A DNA stretch of 64,000 nt. It comes from a virus. Taxonomy: Duplodnaviria; Heunggongvirae; Uroviricota; Caudoviricetes; Demerecviridae. The translations under genes were made by a program, and so were the position numbers. This document shows positions 23,511 through 64,000 of this stretch, piece after piece. The stretch's first letter is position 1; each line of letters opens with the position of its first letter. Location: IMG/VR virus record IMGVR_UViG_2974604416_000001, positions 1 to 64,000 of that record. One strand, written 5' to 3'. The notes under the pieces are model-generated. The model saw nothing but the letters and a program-made list of their open reading frames with translations. It was not told the origin of the DNA and ran no database searches.

Positions 23511-24309
23511 TTCTACCTCTCAAGTGACCTTCTGGACTACTAAATACGTGAATTAAAGTACTAAACTAACTCTGAACCCTTTAACTGCTGGGCTATTTTT
23601 GGTGCCTGTTGCCACAAAACAAGAATTACCCCAGAATAAACCCCACTTAGGTCATATAGTGGTGCCTAGTAAAAGTAGGCCTAACCAGCAGCTTCAAAGT
23701 ACTGGGTAGGTACTGGTAGGGGCTGCTAACTTAGATCATCAACTACTGAGAAGGCACCCTATAGGGACTTATCCTGCAAGTGGTTTATATATGTTACAGA
23801 GCTTTTATCGACACTGTAGTTGTTTAGTTGGTCTATTTTTACTGGCAACACCCCTTCTGAGGCTCTAATAGCTATAAAGTTATTAAGGAATTGTGGCTCA
23901 TATTCCCAAATTATAACCTGGTTCTAGTTTAGCTAGGTTAGCACACTAATGGCCTCCTAGCGCTACTAGGCAGGGAACTATCTCTCCCTTAGCTGCTCCT
24001 GCTTCTACATAACGGTTTCCGTACTTAGATTTTTAAATCCTTCCAGAATCTCCGTCTGGTAGGCTACTACCCAGTAACTAAGTACACCAAGCAGAATAGT
24101 ACCGGCACGAAGAGCTAGAGTTTTAGGGTCTTTTATATCCTGTAAAAGAAGCTCTATCATAGCTAGGATAGAGCTTTTTGGTGGCTGCTACGACACGGTA
24201 GTTTTCTCCGTAGGACGAACTCTCTCAATACTTAGTATATGATATAGCGCCACCAAAGTAAATAAGTTTTTAGGATAAAGACGAAAGCCTCGCATTGCGA
24301 GGCTCTTTA

Positions 24310-29638: not shown

Positions 29639-29995
29639 TTAGTTCTCCAAGTAATTATCTGTAAACGCCAGAGAAGAAAGGGTACTGAACCATGTCAGCA
29701 CCCCATTTCTCAAACTGCTCTTTATGTCGTTCATCAATCTCTACGACGTACCCGTACTTCCATACACCAGTCACTTTGGCAATCCAAGAGTACCCAAATA
29801 CTACCTAGTGAACTTGTCTGCCAATCATGTCTGTCATAGAGTGCAGCCCCCACCAGAACAGGATTCTTCCTTCATTGAAGAAGAAACAGAGCCTGTATCA
29901 GTGTTGCAGTAGTACATGGTCTTCAAACCGTAATGACGCGCCATCTACCAAAGACCCAGAAGAACCTTCATAGGAATCTTCTCGTCTGGGTAGTC

Positions 29996-33790: not shown

Positions 33791-34355
33791 ATTATTTTAA
33801 ATCCGGTAGGGCATCTACTAGTTGCTCTATGGAATCAAAATACTTCATAGGGAATTTCTTATCCCTATACACTTTAGCTCTAGTCTCCTAATGCCGGTAC
33901 CCAGTTCCACCAGATAAAGCTAGGTCTATAGCAATAGGTGTGCGCTTACCCCTCATAAGTCTTTGTATGCGTCCAATTAGCTGGGCTATTAGTGACTAGT
34001 TATCACTACTAGAAGTGAGTATTAGACAAGACAGTATACTTAGTGATAGACCTTCCGAGAATATAGAAGTAGTGGATACCACCCCCTAGTACTTACCTTC
34101 TTGCACTTGCTCCAAGATGGCAGCCCGGTTCTTTTCCTCTGAAATAATTAGTGCCCACTTCTTTCCAGTTACTTCTTCCAGCACACTGGCAAGTGTTCGA
34201 GAGAAGTCTACTCGGTCTGAGGTGATAAGAGGTATGTGCCCGCTAAAATGGGCCTAAGCCTACAAGCAAACTATTTCCTTTAGGTAAACATCCTGACTAT
34301 ATAAATCTGTCACCTAGTTAGCCCAACCACCAGGCTGTGCTGTTAGGTTAAATTT

Positions 34356-35220
34356 CTACTTGGAGTAGGTTCTGAGAACTATTGGAATCATCACGTTCTC
34401 TTCTTTCGGGATTACAACATTCTTGCTGAACCACCCTGGGAATAAAACATGCTTACCGTCTTTACGGATTAGTGTACCACTAAGACCTAGCTTAATACCA
34501 GCGAAACTATGTACTAGTACTTTTTCAAAGGTGGACGCTGGGCAATGATGTACTTCATCCATAATCAGTAAACCAAACTCTCTACATAAGGATTGGGCAT
34601 GCTTCTGTACGGTTTGTATGTTACCAATTACTATAGGGGTAGAGGTATCTACCTGACCACCCCCGATTATAGAAGGTGTAAAGCCAAAATGTTTCCTAAC
34701 TTCTTGCACCCACATATCTCGAATATCCGTAGTCGTGGTGACTACCAGCGTCTTTAGCTGCAATTTGTGGGCTATAGCCAGCTAAGTAATAGTTTTACCA
34801 AACCCAGGTATTGCGTTAATAATCCCATTTAGCTAAAATCCCCCTATTTTAGGGTAACTAAGGAACTATTCCATAGCCATATCCTGAGATTCCCTCAACA
34901 CAAATAGAGGGTCTGGTATTTTCTACGGAACCTTAGAAGTTCTGTCTACAAACTCAAACTGACAACCCTAACCTGTTACCCGTTTGCACATACCAATGAT
35001 GGTATCTATGTGTCCCGAAGGGAAGGAATAGGCCTGTTTAGCTGTTGATATAGTCTTAATCTGGAGCTAGATTGGTTGAAACTTCTGATTAGGGCTTTGT
35101 TTAGGTAAAATAAACGTAAGAAGCTCTACCTATTGCTGGTGTTCTTCTGGCGTAAGCCGCATATATACTTGGTCTGATATAACCACCTTTCGTGGCTAGC
35201 TTAAAGCTTCTTTCTACGTG
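34356..35220 (-). CDS. SF2 (DExH) helicase, with at least 4 in-frame TAG in the N-terminal region
   Basis: Walker A IPGFGKTIT and DEVHH (DExH) motif; frame continues upstream through TAG at 34782-34784, 34833-34835, 34866-34868 and 34923-34925; 5' boundary uncertain. Confidence 0.5.
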
Positions 35221-35227
35221 AACAATT

Positions 35228-35482
35228 CTACGTGTCTCCAAAATCTAAAGGCATGTAACACATTGCCCCTAGTTTAACTAGGTAAACATATAAGTAGCCC
35301 CTAGAAGCAACTACACGTTCTAGGCCTCCCTCTGGGAGTTTGTACCACATTTCTACCCTGCTATCTTCTAGTTGGTTTGCCTTTATAATTTTAGCTGGCA
35401 CTACATCATAGTAGGTACTTTTTACCCACTTAAACACCCTGCCTTGGTTATTTATAAAGTTTAGCGTTCCACTATTAGCCAA
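35228..35482 (-). CDS. hypothetical protein
   Basis: 84-aa ORF. Confidence 0.35.
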   Translation of the reverse strand: MANSGTLNFINNQGRVFKWVKSTYYDVVPAKIIKANQLEDSRVEMWYKLPEGGLERVVASRGYLYVYLVKLGAMCYMPLDFGDT

Positions 35483-38124: not shown

Positions 38125-38169
38125 ATACTCAGGTCTCCTTAAACCTCTGTCCAATCAATCTCATCAATA

Positions 38170-39002
38170 AACTTCTTCAAGTAGTCTACCTCAGGCTTAC
38201 TAAGTCCGCCTGGGTCTCCGCCTTGTGGTAGTATATGGTTCTACACATATACTCTAAAGTGCTTAGATAGCACTTTTGATAGGTTCTGAGCAGCAGCATT
38301 ACCTGCGTCATCATTATCCATCAATATCACTACTTTTTTCGTATCTGCCGCAACTAAAGGTAGGCACTTTTGGTCAACTGTTCTATGTGTAACAGTTGAG
38401 GCACCAAATACCTAAGTCACGTTAGACACCCCCTTGTCCATAAGGTTGGCAACGTCAAATATGCCTTCCACTAGAATAGTTACTCCATTACTCTGCACAG
38501 CAGGGTAGAAGGGTATTTTTGCACCATCTGGGTAGGCTAAATACTTCGGCTTTAAGTCACTATACATAGAACGCTAGATTACTGCGCATAGGTTGCCTGT
38601 TACCAAGTCTGTAATTGGGAAACATAGGCGCCCCTCCCAGTTAGAGTGGGTGAACGCTTCTAATTTCTTGTAGGTATCCTACGATATATCTCTGTAGGTC
38701 TACGCAAAAGGCTCAATGGACGGTGGCAGGGTTATGCCCACGGAGAAAATGTTGAGCTCTTGTAATTTTCTCTTGAACTGTCGTATCTTTGGGGAAACTT
38801 TTGGTAGTTCCACACCCAAGTATTCATGAATAGACTTACCTTTGAAACCACACGCATAACAGTGGTATACTCCTAGCTCTTTGTCAATGTACATTGATGG
38901 TGAAGAGTCTTCGTGTTCTGGATTTAAGCACAGCACTAGGTAGTCCTTACCTTTTTCCTTAAAAGGAATGCCACGCTGCTCTAGTAGCTCTTTTACATTC
39001 AT
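38170..39002 (-). CDS. DnaG-like DNA primase (TAG-containing)
   Basis: N-terminal CHC2 zinc finger CLNPEHEDSSPSM...YHCYACG; frame continues through TAG at 38700-38702, 38679-38681 and 38574-38576; 3' boundary approximate. Confidence 0.55.
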
Positions 39003-39267
39003 ATTACCTCACTTTCCAATATTATACACCTAAAAAGGCCTGTGATCAAGATTTATAACAAAAAAGGAGATGATTTTACTCATCTCCTTGTTCTTCTTGC
39101 GGCACTTTGACTATGCTTTGCGGGATAATTTTCATGTAGTCCCACGACATATGGGTCACGAAGTTGATACCTGCTGGGAGGTTACGCAACTTAGCTACTG
39201 TAAGTGTCAGAACTGAGCCAGATTTATTAATGGTGAACTACATATCCACCTAGTCTAACAAACCTTT

Positions 39268-40434
39268 CTACATACGAGTGGCTCCGTTTTCATCTACTTG
39301 ATACGGTGAAATAACCAGAACTTTCTGCTTCCTGGCTATTGTGTTCTTAAGCATAGTTGCTAACTGTGTTTGAACTTTCCAATCCAGCCTATCCAGAGTT
39401 TTTACGCCCTCAAGTATAAGCTGGTTTACATAGTCAACAATTACCGTGGTTACTAGTCCAGGGTATTTTGCCTTTAGTGTCGTTAGTACTAAATCAATGG
39501 TGGAGATTTTTAGGTTCCTATCATCAATTACTACTATCGGTAAAATCTGTTTTAGGTGTTGCTTGAAATACGTTTCGTGGCTTTGGAATAGGTCTCTCGT
39601 AGGAGGCTCTTCTAGTGCTTTTAGTTGATCCATTAAGTAATCAAAACCACCTTCGTACTGTGCGGCTTGGGAAAGCTACAACTGTACTTGTTCAAAGTGG
39701 TTCATAGTACCATTACGTAGTGCAGAGAATCTGACACCACTGGCAGTCTACCAAAATCTCTGGTATGTTTCCTCAGCAGTCATTTCGATAGTACAGTACG
39801 GGGCTATTTTACCAACCATCCAATGGTGGGCACAGATGTTAATACAAAGTGCTGATTTACCAACTCCTCGATATCCACCTAGAAGAATAAGCTCTTCTTC
39901 CTTACCTCCCAGAAACTCCATATCCCAGCGCTCTGATAACCCAAGGGTTGAGAACTAGGTTTGGGTTTCTTCCTCCGCACGAAACATTGAAATTTCGTTA
40001 CCGTAGAATACTTTGTCAGAACTGTCTATCTCCTCTTCCACTAGCATCTAAATAGCCTAGAGTTCTTCCACTATCTCCTGTGGCCCTAACAAGGGTAAGT
40101 TGTCTGCAAACTTGTCTAACTTCTCGATAGCGATATGCTGGATGTGCTCGGCTTCTAGTTGCTCCAACTATAGTGAGATTGGTACGTCCGGTAGCTCCAC
40201 CTTTTCAAGTGCTAGTACCTAATGCAGGACGGAAGAGTTTCTGGAGTTAAACAGCTTTAACTCTTCAAAAGATGGGACTCTGGCATGTGCTTCGTAGAAG
40301 TTATTTACTGATCGATATACGCTGGAGAATAGGCCCGAGAAGTACTACGATTTCAGCTTTTCCATCTAAGCTAGCTTTTGCTCCTAGTCTGTAGACTATA
40401 GCAAAAGCCCTAGAGTTGTGCTTTGTAGTGACAT
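39268..40434 (-). CDS. DnaB-like replicative helicase (about 11 in-frame TAG)
   Basis: Walker A GYRGVGKSALCI and H3-like VIVDYVNQLIL; start ATG at 40434 with an AAGGAGC RBS. Confidence 0.55.
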
Positions 40435-40460
40435 CTAAGCTCCTTGAGTAATAAAACAAA

Positions 40461-40497
40461 ACAAAAAAGGAGGCACTTAGGCCTCCTTCTTTATAGC
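40461..40497 (-). terminator. rho-independent terminator
   Basis: aggaggc-actta-gcctcct hairpin followed on the minus strand by ttttttgttttgtttt. Confidence 0.6.
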
Positions 40498-54441: not shown

Positions 54442-54444
54442 TCA

Positions 54445-54476
54445 AGGGAGCCTCAGGGCTCCCTTTGTTTTTGGAG
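54445..54476 (+). terminator. rho-independent terminator
   Basis: agggagcc-tca-gggctccct followed by ttgttttt. Confidence 0.6.
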
Positions 54477-54483
54477 AGAATAT

Positions 54484-56652
54484 ATGCCTATTTATGTTGG
54501 CAACACTGGGGCCTAGAAAATATTAGGTCTAACAAAAACCTCCCAGGATTAGTGGAACGTAAAGCCAGATACTATATTCCACTCCTCCCTGCCGTATGTA
54601 GAAGTAATCGAGCATTATATGCCTGTTGCGTATAAACACTAGGCTGCACCTTATGACTATTTAGTAAAAGATTATAACCCAGACTACTGGGGGACAGTAA
54701 CAGTATATGACTGGTTCAATTACTACAATTACGCACCAATAAATGGAAATAAATATCATAATATTCATTACTATGAATAGGTGCTTACCGATTAGGTAAA
54801 ATCATTCCTTAGGTACACAAATAATTAGTACATACTAATTTATCACTTGAGCAACGGTGCCCAAGTGATGATGCCATAGCATAATTCTGATATAAAGACC
54901 ACCCATAAAGGGGACTTGCAATACCTAGACTAGACAGAAGGTAACATATAGACCCCCAACTAGGGGTATAGGTCTAGAATGGATCAACTCAAAGCTATTG
55001 ATAGTCCGTGGGACTTAACTGGGTACCAAGACGTATATTGGTTTCAGTACGCCTTTGTACAGCCTTCTGCAAGCGGAGTTGTTACAACCACTAATGGTAT
55101 AGTAAGCACTCTTGATATCACTGTTACTGGTATTACTATCCTGCAGTTAGTAGGTCTTAACCTAGTCTAGGCAACTCCAGGAGCTAACCCGCTGTCTACG
55201 TAGCCACTGAACCCTTAGCAGCAAGGGGCCGTTCTTATATCAAGAGATTCCTTGAACATTTAGGGAGTTGAGTATAAGAACAAAAAGTTTCTGCAAGTGC
55301 TTACTAACCCCATTACTACTACAGGTAGTTAGGCTGTAAACGTCTCTACTTAGAACTTATAGGTTACAAATCTGTACGCCTCTTCTCCCAGCTTCCAATG
55401 GGGGACTAGACTAGACTATCTAGCTAAATATCGTGACGGGGGCTTCATGAACGTAGATATAACCTAGGGTTCTTCACAGTACACCTTAATAAACTATCCT
55501 CTGGGGCAGGAGTGGTACTCTAATGTCCCTGCTGTAGGTGCTTGGGGCGTGCTGCCAGGCAATAATATGACAACATATAGTGGGGCTGTGCCAGGGTACT
55601 GGCCTTATAGTTTTTATGGTGGTGCGTCAGTTGGGGTTAATTCTTGGAAAGGTAGTATTAGGAAACCCAAAGAGCTTATTTAGCAGTCTTGGTAGCACAC
55701 CTTTACTAGACTTAGCTAGACCGATACCTGGACTCTAGGTCAGTACTTTAACCAAGGGCTAGCAAATCGCCTTGGTTCTGAGGTTCAATACTTCTAGGGC
55801 GTGTAGATTACCTCTCTAAGTAAGTAGTAGGGTATTGCGTTTGATAGTTCACACCCTAGCATCAATTAGGGTGCCCAATATAAGATGTTCTCGCCAGATT
55901 CGCAAATGGTTGCAAGAATTGGTAAAACATACGCAGCAGCTATCCCACAAGATACCTTTAGCGGGTCACCCTACTATTCTGGGACACGGAATTTTCCGTA
56001 GTACGAAGATGATATTCTTGTATCAATAATTGATTTGGGGTAGGAAGAGCAGTAGACCAACAACTTCTTCCTAACATCCTACATTCAAGACCAAGATTTA
56101 ATTAACCTGTCCTATGCTAATACCTTGAGGTTTATTGTATCGGGTGGCGTTATCTCATACCAAGAGAATAACTTTAACCCAAGCTACAACATACCTAAGT
56201 AGTGCTTATTCTATAGATAGCCGTATGATGGGGTTGGTGGGCAATGGTACAAGTCTGTGCAAGCCAATAATGGTTCCCCTGTATAGTTTGGTTATCCAAA
56301 TTGGTACTACAGCAACTACGACTTACCTACAGATATGATAGGATTCCCTTTCCAATCAAACCATATACGTAATAGGTAGGTTTCTGTGGTAAGCTTGCCA
56401 GTAGGTGCACAATATATCTTGAAAGAAGAGCTGAATCCACAGTCAAGCTACGCGTGGAACGGGCCAGACCAAGTTAGGGGGGTACGAAGCTCTATCTAGT
56501 ATCTTCGTAGAATCTCATAGTCCAGAATTGAGGTGCGCCTCAACGTACATAAGACACAGTAGCACAGTAGGTTCTCTAATGGTGGGTATCTTGGTTTCGG
56601 TACTTTTGGGTCTAGCGTAGTTCAAAACTTCTAGATATGCCCTATACTGTAA
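54484..56652 (+). CDS. large Tyr/Gly/Asn-rich protein, 723 codons with about 50 in-frame TAG (fiber/OMP-like?)
   Basis: the frame from the ATG at 54484 to the TAA at 56650 contains no TAA or TGA but many TAG; the tracked 63-aa ORF 54979-55170 is an internal TAG-free piece of this same frame. Confidence 0.4.
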
Positions 56653-57616: not shown

Positions 57617-58003
57617 ATGCTTATCAAGCTAGTGATGGGTGATCCATCCAACGATGGTCACGGAATCTCGGAAACTGTGCTTTTATCCACAGAATATACT
57701 GCAAAGCAAATTCAGGGTTTTGTAGAATCCGCAGAACGTGCCTTGGGTCTCAAAATGGAGGATATTGCTCACGAATACGAAGAGCCCTACATCTCCGGTG
57801 AACATAGAGAAGCTCTTATGCTGGCTGGCGTAGTAGGCCCCGAGGACTTTGAAGCCTGGGACGGTAATTTCTGGGTAACATCGGAAGATTATCTGCATAT
57901 TTACCTTTCTCTTGCAGAAATGGGTAATGGAGGTAAGTCCGTTGGTGAAGTTCTGGAAGTAGAGCAGTTAGATATTGGTGGCTATGGGCTCTACCAACAT
58001 TAA
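57617..58003 (+). CDS. hypothetical protein
   Basis: 128-aa ORF with an AGGAG RBS; flanked by the 47-bp direct repeats. Confidence 0.45.
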   Translation: MLIKLVMGDPSNDGHGISETVLLSTEYTAKQIQGFVESAERALGLKMEDIAHEYEEPYISGEHREALMLAGVVGPEDFEAWDGNFWVTSEDYLHIYLSLAEMGNGGKSVGEVLEVEQLDIGGYGLYQH

Positions 58004-58049
58004 AATAAGTTTTGCATAACAGCCAATTATTTGAGATAATAATCACATG
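58003..58049 (+). repeat. 47-bp direct repeat copy 2 (promoter)
   Basis: identical to 57551-57597; -35 at 58012-58017 and -10 at 58035-58040. Confidence 0.8.
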
Positions 58050-58427
58050 AAATCGGGAACGTTAAGTTGCTTGTTTCATGAAGTGGCGTAACGCAGAGCG
58101 GTGCACCGACTCATACGTGTGACATAGCTTCCTTTAATTAGTGAAGCACCACGAGGGCAGACCAAGCTCCTCAGAAAACAATCTTGGAAATTCTAGTTAA
58201 GTCCACAGCGGAGTAGACAGTAACTAATATCTGCTAGAGGGTGCCGATCTTGTGTGTTGAAGGCTACTAGGGCTACCACACAATACTTACGCAATGCCAG
58301 CTTAGTAAGCGATTAGCTGTAAGTCCCTGACACTGGAAAACCATCGGAAAACTTCTGGGTTAGATACCAGACTGGAAGTGAGTTACATAGCCCGAGTGCT
58401 TCAGACTTCCACACTTTAAAATAAAAG

Positions 58428-58456
58428 TTGCTATTCACTCTGATTCTTGTTACAAT
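58428..58456 (+). promoter_or_regulatory. sigma70-type promoter
   Basis: TTGCTA, 17 nt, TACAAT. Confidence 0.5.
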
Positions 58457-58519
58457 ATTAGAATCAAAGAACGAAAAGAAACTTGGTTGGTGAGCAGTGA
58501 AAGCGTTGTAAAATACTTC

Positions 58520-58548
58520 TTGCCCAATACTGAAAAGTTTGTTATAAT
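58520..58548 (+). promoter_or_regulatory. sigma70-type promoter
   Basis: TTGCCC, 17 nt, TATAAT. Confidence 0.5.
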
Positions 58549-58759
58549 AATCGTACAAAATCAAAAAGGCGTTGGCTTCTCCTCGACGGGTGCCAAAAAA
58601 TTACCGCCCACAAATTAGTCGCCAAGAGAGTGACTATAGCTGGGAAGAAGCTGGAATCGTCAACCAGCACTCTGTTGGCGCAGAGTTAGTATATTGTAGG
58701 TCGGGGCCACGCCAAAGTGCAATTAGGCCCTAGGAGCTAACGACCTTTTTGATTTTAAT

Positions 58760-58848
58760 GGATGTTTTGAGCAGTATGGTGAGCTTCAGCGGGCTGTAAC
58801 CCCGTGGTCTCTAGGGGCCTGTAGGTTCGAATCCTACAACATCCACCA
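58760..58848 (+). tRNA. tRNA-Tyr(GUA), class II
   Basis: acceptor GGATGTT/AACATCC, anticodon loop CUGUAAC, T-arm GTAGGTTCGAATCCTAC, encoded CCA. Confidence 0.6.
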
Positions 58849-58854
58849 ATTTCT

Positions 58855-58940
58855 GGAGGTTTTGAGCAGTATGGTGAGCTCAGGTGGCTGTAACCCACTA
58901 ACTTCTACGTTTATAGGTTCGAATCCTATAACCTCCACCA
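58855..58940 (+). tRNA. tRNA-Tyr(GUA) second copy, class II
   Basis: acceptor GGAGGTT/AACCTCC, loop CUGUAAC, encoded CCA. Confidence 0.55.
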
Positions 58941-58945
58941 ATTTC

Positions 58946-59062
58946 TGGACTTGTAGCGACAACGGCTCGATAGGCGTACCCTGTGTGCGGAGTAATCTGT
59001 AATCACTATCAGGTAAAATCCCTATGGAGCGGTGACTGGTTGGAATCCAGTATAGTCCACCA
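58946..59062 (+). ncRNA. 117-nt tRNA-like element (T-arm + acceptor + CCA, no resolvable cloverleaf)
   Basis: 3' end ACTGG-TTGGAAT-CCAGT ATAGTCC A CCA and 5' GGACTTG; the interior does not fold as a standard D/anticodon arm. Confidence 0.3.
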
Positions 59063-59069
59063 ACTTAAT

Positions 59070-59144
59070 ATTGGCGTGTTCTAACGGTAAGATGCAGGTC
59101 TCCAAAACCTTGCGATGAGGGTTCGAATCCTTCCGCCTTTGCCA
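59070..59144 (+). tRNA. tRNA-Trp(CCA) with two U:U mismatches in the acceptor stem
   Basis: anticodon loop CUCCAAA identical to E. coli tRNA-Trp; discriminator G; CCA encoded. Confidence 0.5.
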
Positions 59145-59152
59145 ATTTTTAT

Positions 59153-59228
59153 AGACCGCTAACTTAATGGTTAGAGTACCCGCCTCTTAAGCGGAAGGTT
59201 CTGAGTTCGAGTCTCAGGCGGTCTACCA
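59153..59228 (+). tRNA. tRNA-Lys(CUU)
   Basis: acceptor AGACCGC/GCGGTCT; loop CUCUUAA. Confidence 0.55.
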
Positions 59229-59235
59229 ATTTAAT

Positions 59236-59309
59236 GCTCGGTTATTTTAACGGGAGAATCCTTCCCTTACAAGGAAGAGGAGTTGGTTCGATTCCAACAC
59301 CGAGTACCA
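59236..59309 (+). tRNA. tRNA-Val(UAC)
   Basis: anticodon stem CTTCC/GGAAG; loop CUUACAA. Confidence 0.6.
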
Positions 59310-59315
59310 GTTAGT

Positions 59316-59391
59316 TGAGACGTTGTGTAATTGGTTAGCACATGTGACTTTGACTCACATAGTTAGGGTTCGAGCCCCTACGTCTCTGCCA
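59316..59391 (+). tRNA. tRNA-Gln(UUG)
   Basis: anticodon stem TGTGA/TCACA; loop CUUUGAC; 1:72 U:U mismatch. Confidence 0.55.
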
Positions 59392-59397
59392 ATTTAA

Positions 59398-59472
59398 GGT
59401 CAGGTAGACTAAGTTAAGTCACTAGGGATCATGCACCTAGGAATGCTGGTTAAAGTCCAGTCATGACCACCA
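59398..59472 (+). tRNA. aberrant tRNA with a 9-nt anticodon loop (GAUCAUGCA; CAU core) and a TTAAAGT T-loop
   Basis: normal acceptor, D-stem GACT/AGTC and anticodon stem CTAGG/CCTAG, but the loop is 9 nt. Confidence 0.4.
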
Positions 59473-59477
59473 ATTTT

Positions 59478-59553
59478 GGATAGTAAGCACATGAGGATGT
59501 GCGGTAGGCCGTTAACCTACAGGTAGAAGGTTCGAATCCTTCACTATCCGCCA
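59478..59553 (+). tRNA. tRNA-Asn(GUU)-like (loop CCGUUAA, C33)
   Basis: acceptor GGATAGT/ACTATCC; anticodon stem GTAGG/CCTAC. Confidence 0.5.
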
Positions 59554-59558
59554 ATTTT

Positions 59559-59635
59559 GGGTTAGAAGCACATATGGTATGTGCGGTCGCCTGTTAAGCG
59601 AATGGTAGAAGGTTCGAATCCTTCCTGGCCCGCCA
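59559..59635 (+). tRNA. tRNA-Asn(GUU)
   Basis: loop CUGUUAA; paralog of the previous tRNA with a different acceptor stem. Confidence 0.55.
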
Positions 59636-59649
59636 AATTAAAATAAATA

Positions 59650-59678
59650 TTGCTATCAAGCCAATAACTTGATATAAT
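59650..59678 (+). promoter_or_regulatory. sigma70-type promoter
   Basis: TTGCTA, 17 nt, TATAAT. Confidence 0.55.
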
Positions 59679-59703
59679 ATTCACAGAAATTGAGGAAAAG
59701 CTA

Positions 59704-59883
59704 ATGAGCAAAGTTTGCAGGTTAGGTGAGAGTAAGGCTCTCAACGTGGCTAAGCGACGTAATCTACGTAAGAAGATGCGTGAGCTAATTAACCAGCACG
59801 TTCAGCCAGAAATGCAAGCAGAGTTTCACACGGCCTTCAATAAAGTATGTGAGGCTTACTGCCTAAGTTTAATGCGTCACTAA
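59704..59883 (+). CDS. small basic protein (59 aa)
   Basis: GAGGAAAAG RBS plus ATG; the 3' end overlaps the 5' acceptor strand of the next tRNA. Confidence 0.3.
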   Translation: MSKVCRLGESKALNVAKRRNLRKKMRELINQHVQPEMQAEFHTAFNKVCEAYCLSLMRH

Positions 59884-59951
59884 TTCAATTGGTTTAGAAT
59901 ATCCGGCTTTTAACCGGAAGGTTGTAGGTTCGAGTCCTACGTGGCGTACCA
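59874..59951 (+). tRNA. tRNA-Lys(UUU)
   Basis: anticodon stem TCCGG/CCGGA; loop CUUUUAA. Confidence 0.6.
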
Positions 59952-60007
59952 TTTAACAAACTGTGAAGGTAGTACAGGACTTAATGTCGGGAATCCTTCT
60001 GGTTTAT

Positions 60008-60082
60008 GCTCCTATCGACTAGCGGTTAGGTCACTACCCTTTCAAGGTAGTAACATGGGTTCGAATCCCATTAGGAGTACCA
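60008..60082 (+). tRNA. tRNA-Glu(UUC)
   Basis: anticodon stem CTACC/GGTAG; loop CUUUCAA. Confidence 0.6.
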
Positions 60083-60169
60083 AACTCTCCCTTGCAGTCT
60101 ACGGACGCTATGGGTTTTTGGAGCACGCAAGGCTCTGCCCAATGTAAAGTCGCCTTGCAACAATTCTAC

Positions 60170-60244
60170 GCTCTGTTAGTTTAATGGAAAGAACACTTCG
60201 CTACGGACGAAGAGATCTGGGTTCGATTCCTAGACGGAGTACCA
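60170..60244 (+). tRNA. tRNA-Arg(ACG)
   Basis: anticodon stem CTTCG/CGAAG; loop CUACGGA. Confidence 0.6.
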
Positions 60245-60549
60245 CTTTTGCCTTGGCCGGCAATAAGTCTAGCTAGTAGACTATAACAGCAAGCACGGTT
60301 ATGGGCCGTATAGCTCATGCGTCCAGCAACTCGACGTAAAATAGGAGCCCTCTTGTTGATTATTGGTATAATCATCCGGAAATAGCCTAACCGTTAGAAA
60401 GGCTGGCCTGTTCCCTCTGACAATGTCAGGTGGAAGTATCTCTTAGATGTCCAGAGCGGATCCCGTTGGGTTGATGCGTGTGTCGGTCTAATTCATACAA
60501 GCCATCAGGATTAGCCATCCATAGAGGGGTTTTTAAAGCGTTTTCTGGC
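60245..60549 (+). ncRNA. 305-nt non-coding spacer inside the tRNA operon (candidate structured RNA)
   Basis: no ORF, no tRNA fold; lies between tRNA-Arg and tRNA-His. Confidence 0.2.
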
Positions 60550-60626
60550 GTGGGCATAGGTTATGTCAGGTTAAACTCCACGTTGTGACCGTGGGAAAAT
60601 GGGTTCAAATCCCATTGCTCACCCCA
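60550..60626 (+). tRNA. tRNA-His(GUG)
   Basis: anticodon stem CCACG/CGTGG; loop UUGUGAC; discriminator C73; T-arm ATGGGTTCAAATCCCAT. Confidence 0.6.
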
Positions 60627-60647
60627 GAGAACGTTTTAAAATAATGA

Positions 60648-60676
60648 TTGCTGTCAAGTCAATAACTTGATATAAT
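60648..60676 (+). promoter_or_regulatory. sigma70-type promoter immediately upstream of the suppressor tRNA
   Basis: TTGCTG, 17 nt, TATAAT; near-identical to the 59650 promoter. Confidence 0.55.
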
Positions 60677-60690
60677 ATTTACATAAATTC

Positions 60691-60765
60691 GGGGATGTAG
60701 CTCAATGGGAGAGCAGCGGACTCTAAATTCGCCGGTTGTGGGTTCGAGTCCCATCATCTCCACCA
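60691..60765 (+). tRNA. amber suppressor tRNA, anticodon CUA, with alanine identity elements (G3:U70, A73)
   Basis: GGGGATG-TA-GCTC-AATGGGA-GAGC-A-GCGGA-CUCUAAA-TTCGC-CGGTT-GTGGG-TTCGAGT-CCCAT-CATCTCC-A-CCA; anticodon C60723 U60724 A60725; the acceptor closely resembles the adjacent tRNA-Ala. Confidence 0.75.
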
Positions 60766-60771
60766 AATTTA

Positions 60772-60845
60772 GGGGAATTAGTGATAATGGTAGCACTTCT
60801 GCCTTGCACGCAGAAAGCGAGGGTTCGATTCCCTCATTCTCCACC
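60772..60845 (+). tRNA. tRNA-Ala(UGC)
   Basis: acceptor GGGGAAT/ATTCTCC with G3:U70; loop CUUGCAC; A73. Confidence 0.65.
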
Positions 60846-60854
60846 AATTTCATT

Positions 60855-60929
60855 CTCTGGGTAGGCAAGTGGTATGTCGTCTGGTTTGGGGCCAGAAAGT
60901 CGAGTGTTCGATTCACTCTCCAGAGACCA
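60855..60929 (+). tRNA. tRNA-Pro(UGG)
   Basis: anticodon stem TCTGG/CCAGA; loop UUUGGGG. Confidence 0.55.
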
Positions 60930-60953
60930 ATCTTCTTAGTAAGGATTCTTAGT

Positions 60954-61154
60954 ATGAGAAATAAAACTAAGATGTTTATTACAAAACATCGAGGTGAACA
61001 GTATATTCAGAAAACTGGAACCTTAAATTTTATATCTCTAAAAGACGGAAGTATGATTCCTGGGGACGTAGCCGAAGAATTGGATAGACTGAATAAGTTT
61101 AAACGTGATTTCGGGTCAGAAACTGGATGGAAGTTCATCTTTACTATACCTTAA
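60954..61154 (+). CDS. small protein (66 aa) inside the tRNA array
   Basis: TAAGGA RBS plus ATG. Confidence 0.35.
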   Translation: MRNKTKMFITKHRGEQYIQKTGTLNFISLKDGSMIPGDVAEELDRLNKFKRDFGSETGWKFIFTIP

Positions 61155-61157
61155 TTG

Positions 61158-61233
61158 ACGCGCTTGGGAGGTAAGGTATCTCACTGGTCTCATAAGCCAG
61201 TAGAAGTGGGTTCGATTCCCACTTGCGCAACCA
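61158..61233 (+). tRNA. tRNA-Met/Ile2-like (CAU) with a poorly paired acceptor stem
   Basis: anticodon stem CTGGT/GCCAG; loop CUCAUAA; standard T-arm and CCA. Confidence 0.4.
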
Positions 61234-61420
61234 AATTAGTGCCTTGTACTTTTCCTGCTTGGCATTAGTAACCTTGAGCTTACAAGGTAAAAGAAAGCCT
61301 GTTCAGGCAATCCACTTTCCCTGTTAAATAAGGTGGATATTGGTAGTAGAAATGTGTGAGACCGTCAGAGGGCACTACCCTTCCTCTGTCCCCGTATTAA
61401 GGTAAGCGGGCCAAATTAAT
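61234..61420 (+). ncRNA. 187-nt non-coding spacer (candidate structured RNA)
   Basis: several inverted repeats (for example ccttgta...tacaagg); no ORF and no tRNA fold. Confidence 0.2.
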
Positions 61421-61497
61421 GCTCTCGTGATGGAATTGGCATACATACTACGCTTAGAACGTAGGTTCTGTGGGTTCGAGTCCCACCGAGAGTACCA
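61421..61497 (+). tRNA. tRNA with Leu anticodon UAG but a class I (short) variable arm
   Basis: anticodon stem CTACG/CGTAG; loop CUUAGAA; 5-nt variable loop. Confidence 0.5.
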
Positions 61498-61503
61498 AAT
61501 TAT

Positions 61504-61581
61504 AGAGGGGTAGCTCCAAGTGGTTAGAGCATTCGTTTCATACGCGAACGCGTGTCGGTTCGATTCCGACTCCCTCTACCA
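61504..61581 (+). tRNA. tRNA with a compressed anticodon arm (stem TTCG/CGAA, loop UUUCAUA or 5-nt UUCAU)
   Basis: normal acceptor, D and T arms; the anticodon arm is 2 nt short; anticodon ambiguous (CAU or UCA). Confidence 0.35.
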
Positions 61582-61597
61582 AATTATGTATTGAGTA

Positions 61598-61669
61598 GTT
61601 GCTGTAGTTCAGTAGGTAGAACAGCCCTCTCATCGGGGTACGTCGAAGGTTCGAATCCTTCCAGCAGAT
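61598..61669 (+). tRNA. tRNA-like gene, irregular anticodon arm, no encoded CCA
   Basis: D-arm TAGTTCAGTAGGTAGAAC and T-arm GAAGGTTCGAATCCTTC present. Confidence 0.3.
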
Positions 61670-61963
61670 AATCTCAATATGTGATAACACAACTGAATGT
61701 GGGTTCGACTCCCATCTCTGGCAATCCCAGGGTAGCCTTAATGGTAAAGGCAGAGGTTGTGGTGCCAAAGTCGGGCACAGAAAAACAGACTAATAAATAC
61801 AGAGTTGGCCGCTGCCACTGCCCTGTCACGTCAGGGACTACTAAAAACGTAGAACCCTTCAGCAAGGTTCCCTCTCTGTATAACGCGCGCAATACTTGAG
61901 CCTTGCAAGTATAAAGAAAGGCAGCTAATAAGTGCTTTCCAAAGAGAGTATTTATTAGTTAAT

Positions 61964-62040
61964 GGGGAAATGACGGAACTGGCATACGTGTCATCTTCAA
62001 ACGGTGAATTTTCTGGGTTCGACTCCCAGTTTCCCTACCA
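61964..62040 (+). tRNA. tRNA with Leu anticodon CAA but a class I variable arm
   Basis: anticodon stem TCATC/GGTGA; loop UUCAAAC; acceptor GGGGAAA/TTTCCCT. Confidence 0.5.
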
Positions 62041-62124
62041 AAATTAGTACTACCTTGGGAGAATGCGTTTCGGTACCGAGGCAAAATTCAAGAGTGGGAT
62101 TAAAGGCCCTTTTGGTAGTACTTT

Positions 62125-62199
62125 GGAGCTGTAGCTGAAATGGATTAGTACGTGGTTGAAACCCACGGGATGTTGGATCGTTACCAACCGGCTCCACCA
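62125..62199 (+). tRNA. tRNA-Phe(GAA)
   Basis: anticodon stem CGTGG/CCACG; loop UUGAAAC. Confidence 0.55.
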
Positions 62200-62206
62200 A
62201 ATTAAT

Positions 62207-62281
62207 GCGGCTATAGTGTTAATGGTAACACGAGACCTTGCCAAGGTTTAATTATCGGTTCGAGTCCGATTAGTCGCTCCA
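62207..62281 (+). tRNA. tRNA-Gly(GCC)
   Basis: loop UUGCCAA; discriminator U. Confidence 0.6.
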
Positions 62282-62286
62282 ATTAC

Positions 62287-62360
62287 GCAGTTAAGCACGA
62301 GGTGTGTCGCCGGCCTTCCAAGCCGCGCAGAGTAGGGTTCGATTCCCTCTAGCTGCTCCA
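62287..62360 (+). tRNA. tRNA-Gly(UCC)
   Basis: loop CUUCCAA; discriminator U. Confidence 0.5.
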
Positions 62361-62440
62361 ATTTGGTTCCCTCGAAGCTGGGACGTAAGCACAAGATTAA
62401 ATCGGAAGCCTTTAACGTCTTGTGGCCAAAAACTAATTAT

Positions 62441-62515
62441 GGGGCTATAGTATAATGGCTATTATCGGTCACTGTCTATGACAAGATGAGGGTTCGATTC
62501 CCTCTAGTCCCGCCA
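62441..62515 (+). tRNA. tRNA-Asp(GUC)-like
   Basis: loop CUGUCUA. Confidence 0.45.
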
Positions 62516-62521
62516 AATTCC

Positions 62522-62597
62522 GGTTCCATCGTTTATGTGGATAAGATACCTCCCTGTCACGGAGGAGTACAGGGTTCGAACCCCTGTGGAACCGCCA
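62522..62597 (+). tRNA. tRNA-Asp(GUC)
   Basis: anticodon stem CCTCC/GGAGG; loop CUGUCAC. Confidence 0.6.
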
Positions 62598-62604
62598 AAT
62601 TAAT

Positions 62605-62680
62605 GCTTCCATCGACTAAGCGGTTAGGTCGTCAGACTTTCAATCTGAAAATGCGAGTTCGATCCTCGCTGGAAGTACCA
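62605..62680 (+). tRNA. tRNA-Glu(UUC) second copy
   Basis: anticodon stem TCAGA/TCTGA; loop CUUUCAA. Confidence 0.55.
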
Positions 62681-62923
62681 AATTCAGAGCGCAGGCAATA
62701 GGGACTCCGGTGCGGTGGTTGCCAATAGTTACGCAGCGACGAGTGAGACCTCTGAATAAAAAGCAACCTGGCCCTCTCCCAGCAATGGTGATGGAGCTTC
62801 CTTTCCTGTAACAAGGTTCCAGTCCGCGACGGGTAAAAGGTTACATACAGACAATATAAGACCTGAGCTTACAGGTGAAAGGGAGATTGGGTTTGTCTTT
62901 CAACCGTACCTCCCAAGTATTTT
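62681..62923 (+). ncRNA. 243-nt non-coding spacer (candidate structured RNA)
   Basis: inverted repeats ttcagag...ctctgaa; no tRNA fold. Confidence 0.2.
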
Positions 62924-62999
62924 GCTAGGTTCGTACAGCAGGTTAGTACAGACGGCTGATAACCGTCAGACACAGGTTCGAGTCCTGTACCTAGTACCA
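62924..62999 (+). tRNA. tRNA-Ile(GAU)
   Basis: anticodon stem GACGG/CCGTC; loop CUGAUAA. Confidence 0.6.
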
Positions 63000-63005
63000 A
63001 TTTAT

Positions 63006-63081
63006 AGTGTGTTAGCTCAGTAGGTAGAGCAGGCTCTTGATAAGGGTCAGGTCACTGGTTCAAATCCAGTACGCACTACCA
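63006..63081 (+). tRNA. tRNA-Ile(GAU) second copy
   Basis: loop UUGAUAA. Confidence 0.55.
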
Positions 63082-63085
63082 ATTT

Positions 63086-63160
63086 GTTTGGTTAGTTTAA
63101 TAGGCAAAACACCGCCTTGGTAAGGCGGAATCGCAGGTTCGACTCCTGCACTGAACACCA
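63086..63160 (+). tRNA. tRNA-Thr(GGU)
   Basis: anticodon stem CCGCC/GGCGG; loop UUGGUAA. Confidence 0.6.
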
Positions 63161-63332
63161 GAAGTGCATTCAAGCCTATGAGAGTTATATGCTTGTAAAT
63201 ATCTCTTGTAACTCCCAGTTAGAAAGAGTACCCTAGCTGGTAAAACTAGAAGGTATCCCGCTGCGCGTACTAACCGCCAAGTTGTAAGAACTAAGTAGTT
63301 AGTAGGGTTGAAAGGGCAACCCACTCATTTTT

Positions 63333-63407
63333 GCTCCTAAAGCATTGCTGGCGATGCAGTTGCCTTGTAAGCATCTGAACTAGGTTCGATTCCTAGTGGG
63401 AGCACCA
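63333..63407 (+). tRNA. tRNA-Thr(UGU)
   Basis: loop CUUGUAA. Confidence 0.55.
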
Positions 63408-63413
63408 ATTTAC

Positions 63414-63504
63414 GGAAGATTAGTCTAATGGTAAGGCAGCTGTTTGCTAAACAGTCGGACACCTAAGTAGGGTCTTACAGGTTCGAGTCCTGTATCTTCC
63501 ACCA
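63414..63504 (+). tRNA. tRNA-Ser(GCU), class II
   Basis: loop UUGCUAA; long variable arm. Confidence 0.6.
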
Positions 63505-63519
63505 ATTTCTGGAGTGTTG

Positions 63520-63750
63520 ATGAACTACGCCAAGAAAATTGCTAAAAAGCAAGAAAAGATTAGCAAACTCCAGCTAGAACTAGCGCAGCTAGTTATGGAG
63601 TTTCAAGATTCCTGTACACATACATATGTTCCAGTAAGGCACTGGGATGACGATGATGGGTACTCTAAGCGTCTTTGCACTCACTACACTGAGTTTAGAT
63701 GTGTTCATTGTAAGCACACAACCGTAGAGGCTAAGACCTTTAATAGTTAA
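63520..63750 (+). CDS. small zinc-ribbon protein (76 aa)
   Basis: GGAG RBS plus ATG; CTH...CVHCKH cluster. Confidence 0.4.
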   Translation: MNYAKKIAKKQEKISKLQLELAQLVMEFQDSCTHTYVPVRHWDDDDGYSKRLCTHYTEFRCVHCKHTTVEAKTFNS

Positions 63751-63751
63751 T

Positions 63752-63841
63752 AGAAGGTTCGCATAATGGTATTGCAGCAGCTTGGAAAGCTGTAGACACC
63801 TAAGTAGGGTCTTGTGGGTTCGAGTCCCACACCTTCTGCCA
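63752..63841 (+). tRNA. tRNA-Ser(GGA), class II
   Basis: anticodon stem GCAGC/GCTGT; loop UUGGAAA; long variable arm shared with tRNA-Ser(GCU). Confidence 0.55.
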
Positions 63842-63844
63842 ATT

Positions 63845-63932
63845 ATGGGCAACGTAGGCAAATGGTAAAGCTGGTCTCTTGTAGCTTTGGCGAACGAGAC
63901 GTTTGTGGGTTCGAGTCCCACCGTATACCCAC
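63845..63932 (+). tRNA. tRNA-like gene, unresolved (possibly an 8-nt anticodon loop)
   Basis: T-arm GTGGGTTCGAGTCCCAC; internal hairpin AAAGCTG-GTCTCTTG-TAGCTTT. Confidence 0.3.
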
Positions 63933-63936
63933 TTCT

Positions 63937-64000
63937 TTTGGAAGGTCAATCCGACAGCAGGCGACGGAACTTGTCTTGAAAACAAGCGAGGTTTAATAGA
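63937..64000 (+). tRNA. tRNA-Ser(UGA), 5' part (truncated by the window end)
   Basis: anticodon stem CTTGT/ACAAG; loop CUUGAAA. Confidence 0.4.

Follow-up and report, generated by a model that had tools for sequence, protein, structure and literature searches.

Introduction

In bacteriophage T5 (NC_005859) the tRNA gene region encodes 25 transfer RNAs (tRNAs) and a series of other RNAs: RNA1 (144 nt) and RNA2 (125 nt), each described in the annotation as a "tRNA-like stable RNA with unknown functions", RNA3, a "putative tRNA-like RNA", and the five stable RNAs I, III, IV, 2H and X. Many promoters and small open reading frames (ORFs) are annotated as well. The DNA analyzed here, in the following called the window, is a stretch of 64,000 nt from a virus record of IMG/VR (IMGVR_UViG_2974604416_000001, positions 1 to 64,000), which ends in a long array of tRNA genes (58760-64000). 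Over the 5.6 kb around this array the sequence is 100% identical to that of Aeromonas phage AhSzw-1 (MG676225), and the coordinates agree. AhSzw-1 is a T5-like siphophage of the genus Shenzhenvirus (Demerecviridae), and it resembles T5 in its family, in the location of the array in the early region, in the arrangement of the array on one strand and in the presence of promoters, small ORFs and encoded CCA ends. T5 is without a tRNA(CUA), whereas AhSzw-1 has one. In all likelihood the region is a T5-type tRNA gene region with about 33 ordinary tRNAs, an alanine-type tRNA(CUA) and four conserved tRNA-shaped RNAs that do not decode. We further propose that TAG is probably translated as alanine in a defined set of essential genes of Shenzhenvirus phages, which would be the first viral reassignment of a stop codon to alanine that we could find, and that these phages maintain by selection at least three non-decoding tRNA mimics, one of them permuted and YrlA-like.

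The likeness to T5 includes the stable RNAs. RNA1 and RNA2 fold into an acceptor stem, a T arm and a long irregular central arm, which is the same design as that of a 116-nt element of AhSzw-1, and two spacers of AhSzw-1 (58556-58759 and 61762-61963) parallel the other stable RNAs of T5. Because RNA1 and RNA2 share this design of acceptor, T arm and central arm, the irregular members of the array can be regarded as further cases of the unexplained kind of RNA found in T5. A permuted module at 61688-61761 has no counterpart in T5, and a model of this module applied to T5 gives junction matches only.

YrlA (RF02553) is a bacterial Y RNA-like RNA and a circularly permuted tRNA mimic. The module 61688-61761 has the permuted domain as well, and it is similar to YrlA in its closing stem, T arm, short hairpin and D arm with a GG loop. 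Membership in the YrlA family was rejected, because the score of 24.5 bits is far below the gathering score of 69 and the same model matches ordinary tRNA-tRNA junctions; the match covers model positions 25-83 of 114 and the Ro-binding stem is absent.

Phages assigned to genetic code 15 (crAss-like and other gut phages with Sup-CTA tRNAs) show the same use of in-frame TAGs in a subset of genes, a tRNA(CUA) and a low coding density under code 11. In contrast to these phages, the tRNA(CUA) of AhSzw-1 has an alanine identity, with alanine instead of glutamine opposite TAG in homologues, and in contrast to the code-15 gut phages AhSzw-1 is T5-like, has been cultured and infects a gammaproteobacterium with the standard code. 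The amber suppressor tRNA-Ala(CUA) made in the laboratory and the rule that G3:U70 confers alanine identity reportedly go back to Hou and Schimmel and to McClain and Foss in 1988. The laboratory tRNA has the same G3:U70, A73 and CUA; the version of AhSzw-1 is natural, invariant in five phages and needed by the phage's own genes. According to the T5 record (NC_005859), exchange of the anticodon turns the tRNA-Ala of T5 into an effective amber suppressor.

The same region is present in the relatives AhSzq-1, AhP_Mru1 (Mru1), Akh-2 and vB_AdhS_TS3 (TS3). Three additional relatives from metagenome assemblies (L010, L011 and L012) were found via the NadR-like protein encoded downstream of the array and retrieved through a protein database and contig look-ups. 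A scan of IMG/VR with the NadR-like protein revealed no relatives, and a scan with the anticodon arm of the tRNA(CUA) gave 0 matches. Rfam scores refer to the tRNA model RF00005, which has a gathering score of 29 bits.

Results

Recoding at TAG

The preliminary description of this DNA had assumed a recoded phage, and this premise proved to be sound. When TAA and TGA alone were used as stops, the fragments annotated in GenBank fused to full-length genes. Full-length alpha and beta subunits of ribonucleotide reductase (RNR), two helicases, a primase, PhoH, D5 and a T-holin are obtained only with TAG as a sense codon. The in-frame TAGs are distributed as follows.

RNR alpha subunit (750 aa): 8 in-frame TAGs
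RNR beta subunit: 4 in-frame TAGs
XPB-like helicase: 16 in-frame TAGs
DnaB-like helicase: 15 in-frame TAGs
Primase: 5 in-frame TAGs
PhoH: 2 in-frame TAGs
D5: 1 in-frame TAG
T-holin: 16 in-frame TAGs

The TAG-bearing genes are located within positions 15203-41292 of the window (e.g. 28517-29638, 29834-32086, 33792-35273, 38139-39008, 39076-40476 and 23507-24340). Alignments to the solved structures of NrdA and NrdB run straight through the TAG sites, and many TAG positions are common to phages with 64-84% protein identity. The genes for DNA polymerase, ligase and origin-binding protein contain no TAG, and the use of TGA or TAA as sense codons brought no gain comparable to TAG. A search of the PDB with the DnaB-like helicase gave no match. 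MG676225, MG676224 and MK318083 are listed as predicted code 15 ("translation table 15") in a published Table S1 (PMC11210395). Judged by its reading frames, the phage is recoded at TAG in a subset of essential genes.

The GenBank record of AhSzw-1 (MG676225) contains zero annotated tRNAs and many fragmented essential genes, and its coding sequence (CDS) AhSzw1_89 (60705-61154) wrongly spans the genes for tRNA(CUA), tRNA-Ala and tRNA-Pro. Just upstream of the array, a reading frame of 736 codons bounded by TAA or TGA (54442-56652, + strand) contains 37 in-frame TAGs (5%); it has no Pfam match with TAG translated as alanine, and GenBank annotates only small fragments of it.

The tRNA(CUA) and the identity of TAG

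The candidate decoder of TAG is located in the first half of the array.

60691-60765 (+): tRNA(CUA), amber decoder, top-scoring tRNA of the window (Rfam 69.5 bits)

The acceptor stem of this tRNA contains the pairs G1-C72, G2-C71, G3:U70 and G4-C69 and is followed by A73, and the anticodon loop CUCUAAA has the canonical length of 7 nt. G3:U70 together with A73 is the identity set of alanyl-tRNA synthetase, an enzyme that ignores the anticodon. The neighbouring tRNA-Ala(UGC) carries the same acceptor and discriminator set, and the closest full-length relatives of the tRNA(CUA) in the phage database are tRNA-Ala genes. The gene is 100% identical in five phages. The suppressor of L010, with about 70% identity, has kept GGGG/CUCC with G3:U70 as well as A73, and its positions 5-7 are changed with compensation; G3:U70 and A73 are also kept in the divergent homologue of L011.

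The residues opposite TAG were analyzed in homologous proteins. In non-recoded homologues of the DnaB-like helicase (30-37% identity) alanine stands opposite TAG in 51 of 108 cases, serine in 20 and glutamine in 2, and the corresponding BLOSUM62 sums are +195 for alanine, +103 for serine and -80 for glutamine. In the XPB-like helicases the TAG after the Walker-A motif GKT aligns with alanine, and a membrane protein has a TAG-TAG-TAG run within a hydrophobic segment. At sites where TAG is replaced by a sense codon in sister phages, alanine is the commonest residue (16/67). The glutamines ("Q") at the TAG sites of close database homologues were set aside as evidence for glutamine, as they most likely stem from the use of code 15 by the gene caller. 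Two observations speak against alanine: glutamine takes second place among the sense replacements of the sister phages (10/67), CAG being one transition away from TAG, and at variable sites of RNR a mixture of residues (E, K/R, H, G and T) stands opposite TAG. Because the tRNA(CUA) has the alanine identity set and alanine is found opposite TAG in the non-recoded homologues, TAG is most probably read as alanine and not as the glutamine assumed by the databases. No earlier report of this reading was found in the literature searched.

Four tRNA-shaped RNAs without decoding features

Four RNAs of the array have the shape of a tRNA and lack a regular anticodon loop.

58947-59062 (+): 116-nt tRNA-like RNA with acceptor stem GGACUUG/AUAGUCC, A73, CCA, a D-arm-like hairpin and a T arm
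61590-61678 (+): clamped tRNA-like RNA (Rfam 43.6 bits; minimum free energy (MFE) z = -2.44)
61688-61761 (+): permuted tRNA-like four-way junction with a 6-bp closing helix CACAAC/GUUGUG, a T arm (61699-61715), a variable 6-bp hairpin (61716-61732) and a D-arm-like hairpin with GG loop (61735-61751)
63845-63932 (+): tRNA-shaped RNA without CCA (Rfam 28.9 bits for 63852-63924, gathering score 29)

The first of these had been described as a tRNA-like element of 117 nt. Its acceptor stem, A73, CCA and T arm could be confirmed; as delimited here it has 116 nt. An irregular rod of about 52 nt with a GUAA cap takes the place of the anticodon arm, and the T loop has the sequence UUGGAAU. The MFE fold has a z of -2.35, and there was no Rfam match at E <= 10. 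The element is present only in AhSzw-1, AhSzq-1 and Mru1, which differ by three structure-neutral substitutions, and blastn in distant mode against 50,697 phage records revealed nothing beyond this clade. Two other assignments were rejected. With a threshold lowered to 60% ARAGORN proposed a tRNA-Arg(CCU) with a 38-nt intron, which would have a poor D stem and an intron inside the anticodon; we discarded this reading because of the lack of a plausible splicing mechanism and of conservation. ARAGORN detected no transfer-messenger RNA (tmRNA) in the window, nor in the 116-nt element or at 63845-63932, and Rfam gave only chance-level hits to permuted tmRNA; pair 3-70 of the 116-nt element is A3-U70, and a tmRNA would need G3:U70.

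The clamped RNA consists of a cloverleaf (61597-61670) with a 6-nt "anticodon" loop and without CCA, which is closed by the outer helix AUUGAG/CUCAAU. The score is in the range of a canonical tRNA; the loop length and the missing CCA are not. All five helices are kept in six lineages, with compensatory changes in 15 of 26 pairs. The sequence of the loop is not conserved and reads CUCAUC, UUCGGU, CUUACC, CUUAUC or UGGGUUG, depending on the lineage. In Mru1 the orthologue was called tRNA-SeC(UCA) by ARAGORN and "suppressor tRNA" in GenBank (L003 6929-7008; 42131-42209 of the Mru1 record). We consider this label to be an artefact because of the variable loops and covarying stems seen across the lineages.

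The RNA at 61688-61761 contains the elements of the tRNA cloverleaf in circularly permuted order, and the MFE fold gives the same structure. In four genomes 99% of the alignment cells are paired and 4 pairs are compensatory, compared with 30-50% pairing in slid controls. With seven sequences 99.4% of the cells are paired and 13 of 26 pairs are compensatory, a result that was reached by 0 of 500 shuffles; this seven-genome alignment was made with the model from the first four genomes, and among the sequences added to it were two lineages that the model had not seen before. RF00005 does not match the module. Its own model otherwise matches only ordinary tRNA-tRNA junctions, and for this reason the module probably arose from such a junction. 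The "T-arm-only fragment" reported at about 61670-61724 turned out to be one arm of this larger conserved structure.

In the fourth RNA (63845-63932) an internal loop interrupts the acceptor stem (4+3 bp). The D stem has 3 bp, the T arm is canonical, and the 5-bp stem GUCUC/GAGAC carries a loop of 17-18 nt. The earlier assignment as tRNA-like was correct, whereas the possible 8-nt loop was not. In five genomes the identity amounts to 91-97%, compared with about 75% for coding DNA, and 3 pairs are compensatory; the element is absent from L010 and L012.

Instead of an anticodon loop of regular size, the conserved irregular elements have loops of 6 nt or 17-18 nt or a GUAA-capped rod, the loop sequences vary while the stems covary, and two of the elements are without CCA. 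The suggestion that irregular members serve as extra decoders or frameshift suppressors is not supported by these wrong-sized, unconserved loops, the covarying stems and the two missing CCA ends, and an 8-nt loop of the frameshift-suppressor type does not occur among the irregular members (9, 6 and 17-18 nt). As far as can be judged from these comparisons, the RNAs at 58947-59062, 61590-61678, 61688-61761 and 63845-63932 are non-decoding tRNA-shaped RNAs. Plain decay is unlikely for three of them because their stems covary, and roles in decoding or as simple decoys of anticodon nucleases are disfavoured because the loops are of the wrong size and not conserved. The segment 61590-61963 may be a single composite RNA.

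Irregular but plausible decoders

Four further genes deviate, or were thought to deviate, from a standard tRNA.

59398-59472 (+): tRNA-like gene with a CAU core in the 9-nt loop GAUCAUGCA and with CCA (Rfam 41.1 bits; relaxed ARAGORN only)
61504-61581 (+): ordinary tRNA(CAU), Met or Ile2 (ARAGORN; Rfam 52.8 bits)
62287-62360 (+): tRNA-Gly(UCC) with a D loop of 5 nt, a bulge in the anticodon stem, U73 and CCA (relaxed ARAGORN only)
63942-64000 (+): 5' part of a tRNA-Ser(UGA) gene that continues to 64034 beyond the window (comparative evidence)

The check suggested in the preliminary description, i.e. relaxed ARAGORN and covariance models, gave different results for two of the genes. The "compressed 4/5-bp anticodon arm" at 61504-61581 was not found: the gene encodes a canonical tRNA(CAU) with a 5-bp anticodon stem and the 7-nt loop UUCAUAC. 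The earlier reading may be explained by the free-energy fold, which prefers a competing hairpin.

In contrast, the 9-nt anticodon loop with a CAU core at 59398-59472 was upheld. The Rfam covariance model aligns a perfect 5-bp stem CUAGG/CCUAG with the loop GAUCAUGCA, and the MFE fold agrees; alternatively, the loop could be a 7-nt AUCAUGC closed by a G.A pair. The score is that of a canonical tRNA and the loop is not. With UUAAAGU as its T loop and no GG in its D loop, the RNA lacks the usual elbow contacts (G18-G19/C56). The gene is present in AhSzw-1 and AhSzq-1 only, two genomes with 98% identity, in which it differs by one base, and blastn in distant mode against the 50,697 phage records found nothing outside this clade. 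It is the sole irregular member with an anticodon-like core, and its restriction to two near-identical phages gives no sign of maintenance and no support for a role as an extra decoder. Classical frameshift-suppressor tRNAs of the sufD and sufJ type have an 8-nt anticodon loop. The gene at 59398-59472 shares with them an enlarged loop; it differs in the loop size of 9 nt, in its occurrence in two near-identical genomes and in having no known frameshift site.

The cloverleaf at 61597-61670, the tRNA-Gly(UCC) and the tRNA-Ser(UGA) across the window end had not been mentioned before. The tRNA-Gly(UCC) is present in six genomes with the invariant loop CUUCCAA, shows 3 compensatory pairs in a four-genome alignment and is probably a working tRNA that was overlooked by the default detectors. 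The tRNA-Ser(UGA) (63942-64034) shows compensatory changes of the anticodon stem across lineages, and ARAGORN makes no call for it in AhSzw-1. Both tRNAs, and perhaps also 59398-59472, are odd but plausible decoders.

Organization of the array

ARAGORN with default settings detected 31 tRNA genes at 58760-63841, all of them on the + strand. At or above the gathering score RF00005 gave 31 genes for the whole window and 32 for 58000-64000 alone, and relaxed ARAGORN added 59398-59472 and the tRNA-Gly(UCC). The array extends past the window with a further tRNA(CAU), tRNA-Leu(UAA) and tRNA-Cys. CCA is encoded by 33 of 34 tRNA or tRNA-like genes, and in 25 of the 33 cases A(1-3)TT follows directly. 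This motif has a density of 4.96/kb in the array and of 0.36/kb in the rest of the window, a difference of about 14-fold. The 21 tight spacers have lengths of 3-15 nt, mostly 5-8 nt. The basic observation of the preliminary description, at least 30 tRNA genes within 58760-64000, mostly with encoded CCA and separated by a conserved A/T spacer, is therefore correct, since the tRNA counts, the CCA ends, the spacers and also five duplicated isoacceptors were all found. The word "oversized" is a relative one: T5 has 25 tRNAs, and 32 tRNAs of AhSzw-1 were already in print (PMC7157608).

With 31-33 tRNAs and four promoter modules the region is a dense same-strand cluster (more than 15 tRNA genes, several promoters), and as in T5-like tRNA regions three small ORFs, four tRNA-like elements and conserved structured spacers are interspersed. 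The promoter-like modules were assigned by a pattern family.

58428-58456 (+): promoter-like module P1, TTGCT-N18-TACAAT
58520-58548 (+): promoter-like module P2
58556-58759 (+): conserved leader RNA with a terminal helix of about 24 bp joining the 5' and 3' ends (five phages)
59650-59678 (+): promoter-like module P3
59704-59883 (+): small ORF, 59 aa, no family match
60648-60676 (+): promoter-like module P4, immediately upstream of tRNA(CUA) and kept upstream of the suppressor tRNA in L010
60954-61154 (+): small ORF, 66 aa, extended by the GenBank CDS 60705-61154 over three tRNA genes
61762-61963 (+): multi-hairpin spacer RNA with 5 compensatory pairs and 88-100% identity
63520-63750 (+): small ORF, 76 aa, Cys/His-rich, no family match

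The promoter family, TTGCT-N18-TAYAAT with a TG-extended -10 element, has 17 copies in the window, compared with 3.7 expected. The copies outside the array are mostly on the - strand (e.g. 9251, 44187 and 46673), those within the array on the + strand. The leader RNA is located between P2 and the first tRNA-Tyr gene, shows 85-96% identity across the genus and is a candidate for a stable RNA or an RNase III substrate. The spacer RNA ends with a 17-bp hairpin just before tRNA-Leu(CAA). A 52-codon ORF at 61741-61899 was rejected as coding sequence, since in Akh-2 and TS3 an insertion of 1 nt directly behind the ATG puts the ORF out of frame. The three small ORFs of the array had no match in Pfam or PHROG, including HNH families. 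A hairpin motif TGAGCYT..CARG with an AAAG-rich tail is found in three copies (61275-61293, 61897-61916 and 62864-62881), all in spacers upstream of tRNA clusters, with 0.01 copies expected by chance.

Ordinary tRNAs and duplicated isoacceptors

The remaining tRNA genes were all called by ARAGORN and are listed with their Rfam scores.

58760-58848 (+): tRNA-Tyr(GUA), copy 1, class II (42.4 bits)
58855-58940 (+): tRNA-Tyr(GUA), copy 2 (54.7 bits)
59070-59144 (+): tRNA-Trp(CCA), two U.U mismatches in the acceptor stem (40.4 bits)
59153-59228 (+): tRNA-Lys(CUU) (62.8 bits)
59236-59309 (+): tRNA-Val(UAC) (56.3 bits)
59316-59391 (+): tRNA-Gln(UUG) (56.4 bits)
59478-59553 (+): tRNA-Asn(GUU), copy 1, C33 for the usual U33 (52.4 bits)
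59559-59635 (+): tRNA-Asn(GUU), copy 2, the genus-conserved copy (52.7 bits)
59874-59951 (+): tRNA-Lys(UUU) (66.4 bits)
60008-60082 (+): tRNA-Glu(UUC), copy 1 (65.8 bits)
60170-60244 (+): tRNA-Arg(ACG) (59.1 bits)
60550-60626 (+): tRNA-His(GUG), encoded G-1 and C73 (44.5 bits)
60772-60846 (+): tRNA-Ala(UGC) (62 bits)
60855-60929 (+): tRNA-Pro(UGG) (53.4 bits)
61159-61233 (+): initiator-like tRNA(CAU), weak acceptor stem with C1.A72 and two U.U mismatches (34.9 bits)
61421-61497 (+): tRNA-Leu(UAG) (57.1 bits)
61964-62040 (+): tRNA-Leu(CAA) (50.6 bits)
62125-62199 (+): tRNA-Phe(GAA) (48.4 bits)
62207-62281 (+): tRNA-Gly(GCC) (58.1 bits)
62441-62515 (+): tRNA-Asp(GUC), copy 1, U37 (51.9 bits)
62522-62597 (+): tRNA-Asp(GUC), copy 2 (48.6 bits)
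62605-62680 (+): tRNA-Glu(UUC), copy 2 (61 bits)
62924-62999 (+): tRNA-Ile(GAU), copy 1 (63.9 bits)
63006-63081 (+): tRNA-Ile(GAU), copy 2 (63.6 bits)
63086-63160 (+): tRNA-Thr(GGU) (66 bits)
63333-63407 (+): tRNA-Thr(UGU) (50.5 bits)
63414-63504 (+): tRNA-Ser(GCU) (58.4 bits)
63752-63841 (+): tRNA-Ser(GGA) (56 bits)

Several tRNAs that are otherwise good depart from nearly universal rules, namely the first tRNA-Asn, the first tRNA-Asp, the tRNA-Trp and the initiator-like tRNA(CAU), and seven tRNAs of the array begin with a G1.U72 wobble pair. In L010 (3898-3987) and L012 (3721-3810) a tRNA(CAU) of 90 nt takes the place of a 76-nt tRNA(CAU) of AhSzw-1; its acceptor stem resembles that of Ile2 (GGCCCCU...), and its variable region of 18 nt is unpaired. 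All 20 amino acids are covered once the genes just beyond the window are counted. For four-codon boxes the set gives preference to tRNAs with U34, as would be expected of a phage with 44% G+C in a host with 61% G+C (PMC7157608).

The two copies each of tRNA-Tyr(GUA), tRNA-Asn(GUU), tRNA-Asp(GUC), tRNA-Glu(UUC) and tRNA-Ile(GAU) are present as had been stated. The idea that they are charged differently found no support, as the members of every pair have the same anticodon and the same discriminator base; both copies of a pair should be charged with one and the same amino acid. Their distribution among the relatives is patchy: Ile1 is present in Mru1 and TS3, Ile2 in Akh-2 and both in AhSzw-1. 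The duplicates look like lineage variants that were brought together by recombination. C33 in the first tRNA-Asn and U37 in the first tRNA-Asp are compatible with the published idea of escape from anticodon nucleases (PMC10264068), without being evidence for it.

Elsewhere in the window, an Rnl1-like RNA ligase (phrog_562) adjoins a PNK-like P-loop kinase (AAA_33, phrog_505) at 9553-10464 (-) and 10473-10868 (-). These genes correspond to a T4-type tRNA repair pair and suggest pressure from host defences that cleave tRNAs.

Discussion

The irregular members could be explained in other ways than by maintained non-decoding RNAs. A role as additional decoding specialists, i.e. as quadruplet or quintuplet frameshift suppressors or as further readers of stop codons, would fit the CAU core, the 9-nt loop, the CCA and the 41.1 bits of 59398-59472, and the call of tRNA-SeC(UCA) or "suppressor tRNA" for the Mru1 orthologue of the cloverleaf at 61597. 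It is highly improbable nevertheless: the loop of this cloverleaf varies while its stems covary, its CCA is missing and an outer helix clamps it; the loop of the element at 63845 measures 17-18 nt, and an anticodon loop is missing altogether from the 116-nt element; translation of TGA or TAA as sense brings no TAG-like gain; and 59398, without the elbow contacts G18-G19/C56, occurs in just two genomes that are 98% identical. The non-decoders might instead act as decoys or sponges for host nucleases that target tRNAs (PrrC-like, PtuAB, PARIS or colicin-like) and thereby shield the tRNA pool. This is suggested by the tRNA-Tyr of T5, which counters the retron Eco7 (PMC11555353), by the hypothesis that phage tRNAs escape through their anticodon loops (PMC10264068), by the presence of the T4-type repair pair of Rnl1-like ligase and PNK-like kinase in the phage and by the two tRNA-Tyr genes at the start of the array behind strong promoters. 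However, anticodon nucleases read the loop, so that a decoy would be expected to keep the loop of its target, and the loops found here are wrong-sized and unconserved; two of the elements have no CCA end, and the present analysis knows of no target nuclease in Aeromonas. We therefore regard a decoy function as unlikely.

Decay to tRNA pseudogenes or recombination scars in an array with fast turnover has a similarly low probability as an explanation for the irregular members. The array is a mosaic with copies gained and lost between relatives, the annotation of Akh-2 marks several members as pseudo, 59398 and the 116-nt element are confined to a narrow clade and hardly vary, and the permuted module resembles a fossil tRNA-tRNA junction, its model matching real junctions. 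On the other hand, compensatory changes hold every helix of 61590-61678 (15/26), 61688-61761 (13/26) and 63845-63932 (3 pairs), and the last of these is 91-97% identical where coding DNA reaches about 75%. Because the other three show such compensatory changes and conservation, decay is plausible only for 59398 and perhaps for the 116-nt element.

Our account of maintained T5-type non-decoding RNAs is weakened by several points. There is no sequence homology between the spacers and tRNA-like elements of AhSzw-1 and the stable RNAs of T5, with matches in the T arm only. The covariation analysis is based on 5-7 genomes of a single genus, and one alignment, that of the seven genomes for 61688-61761, was fitted to its model. 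Comparative support is missing for the 116-nt element, with its 3 neutral substitutions, and for 59398-59472, with 1 substitution only. The weakest part is the function proposed below for the non-decoders.

For the array as a whole the following course seems plausible. At least four phage promoters would drive the genes on the same strand and give rise to long transcripts, which would be cut in the short spacers rich in A and U, where A(1-3)UU follows CCA, presumably by an RNase E-type cleavage. RNase E prefers A/U-rich single strands and cuts just after a purine, and the junctions fit this preference. RNase P would produce the 5' ends, and exonucleases would trim the 3' ends back to the encoded CCA. 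In this way the array would supply the phage with its own nearly complete decoding set, and the indispensable tRNA(CUA), expressed from its own promoter, would read TAG in helicases, primase, RNR, holin and other proteins. The non-decoders have kept the tRNA elbow (a canonical T loop and a D loop with GG) and an acceptor-like helix, i.e. the features by which RNase P and other enzymes that handle tRNAs recognize their substrates. They could consequently be bound by tRNA-processing enzymes, and we tentatively suggest, as a possibility rather than as the expected outcome, that they might serve as punctuation for the processing and stability of the long transcripts and of the structured spacer RNAs.

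If TAG is indeed read as alanine, every TAG site in the public code-15 proteins of these phages, in which TAG is translated as glutamine, carries the wrong residue. A natural tRNA-Ala(CUA) that is required by a lytic phage would add a new case of a stop codon assigned to sense, and A. hydrophila and its isolated phages would provide a cultured and tractable pair for asking why only some genes are recoded. For the "tRNA-like stable RNAs" of the T5 type the comparative data indicate selection on structure without a usable anticodon loop, which makes an old puzzle testable. It arises in a phage family in which tRNAs defeat tRNA-cleaving defences, and in a region that sits beside a pair of tRNA-repair genes.

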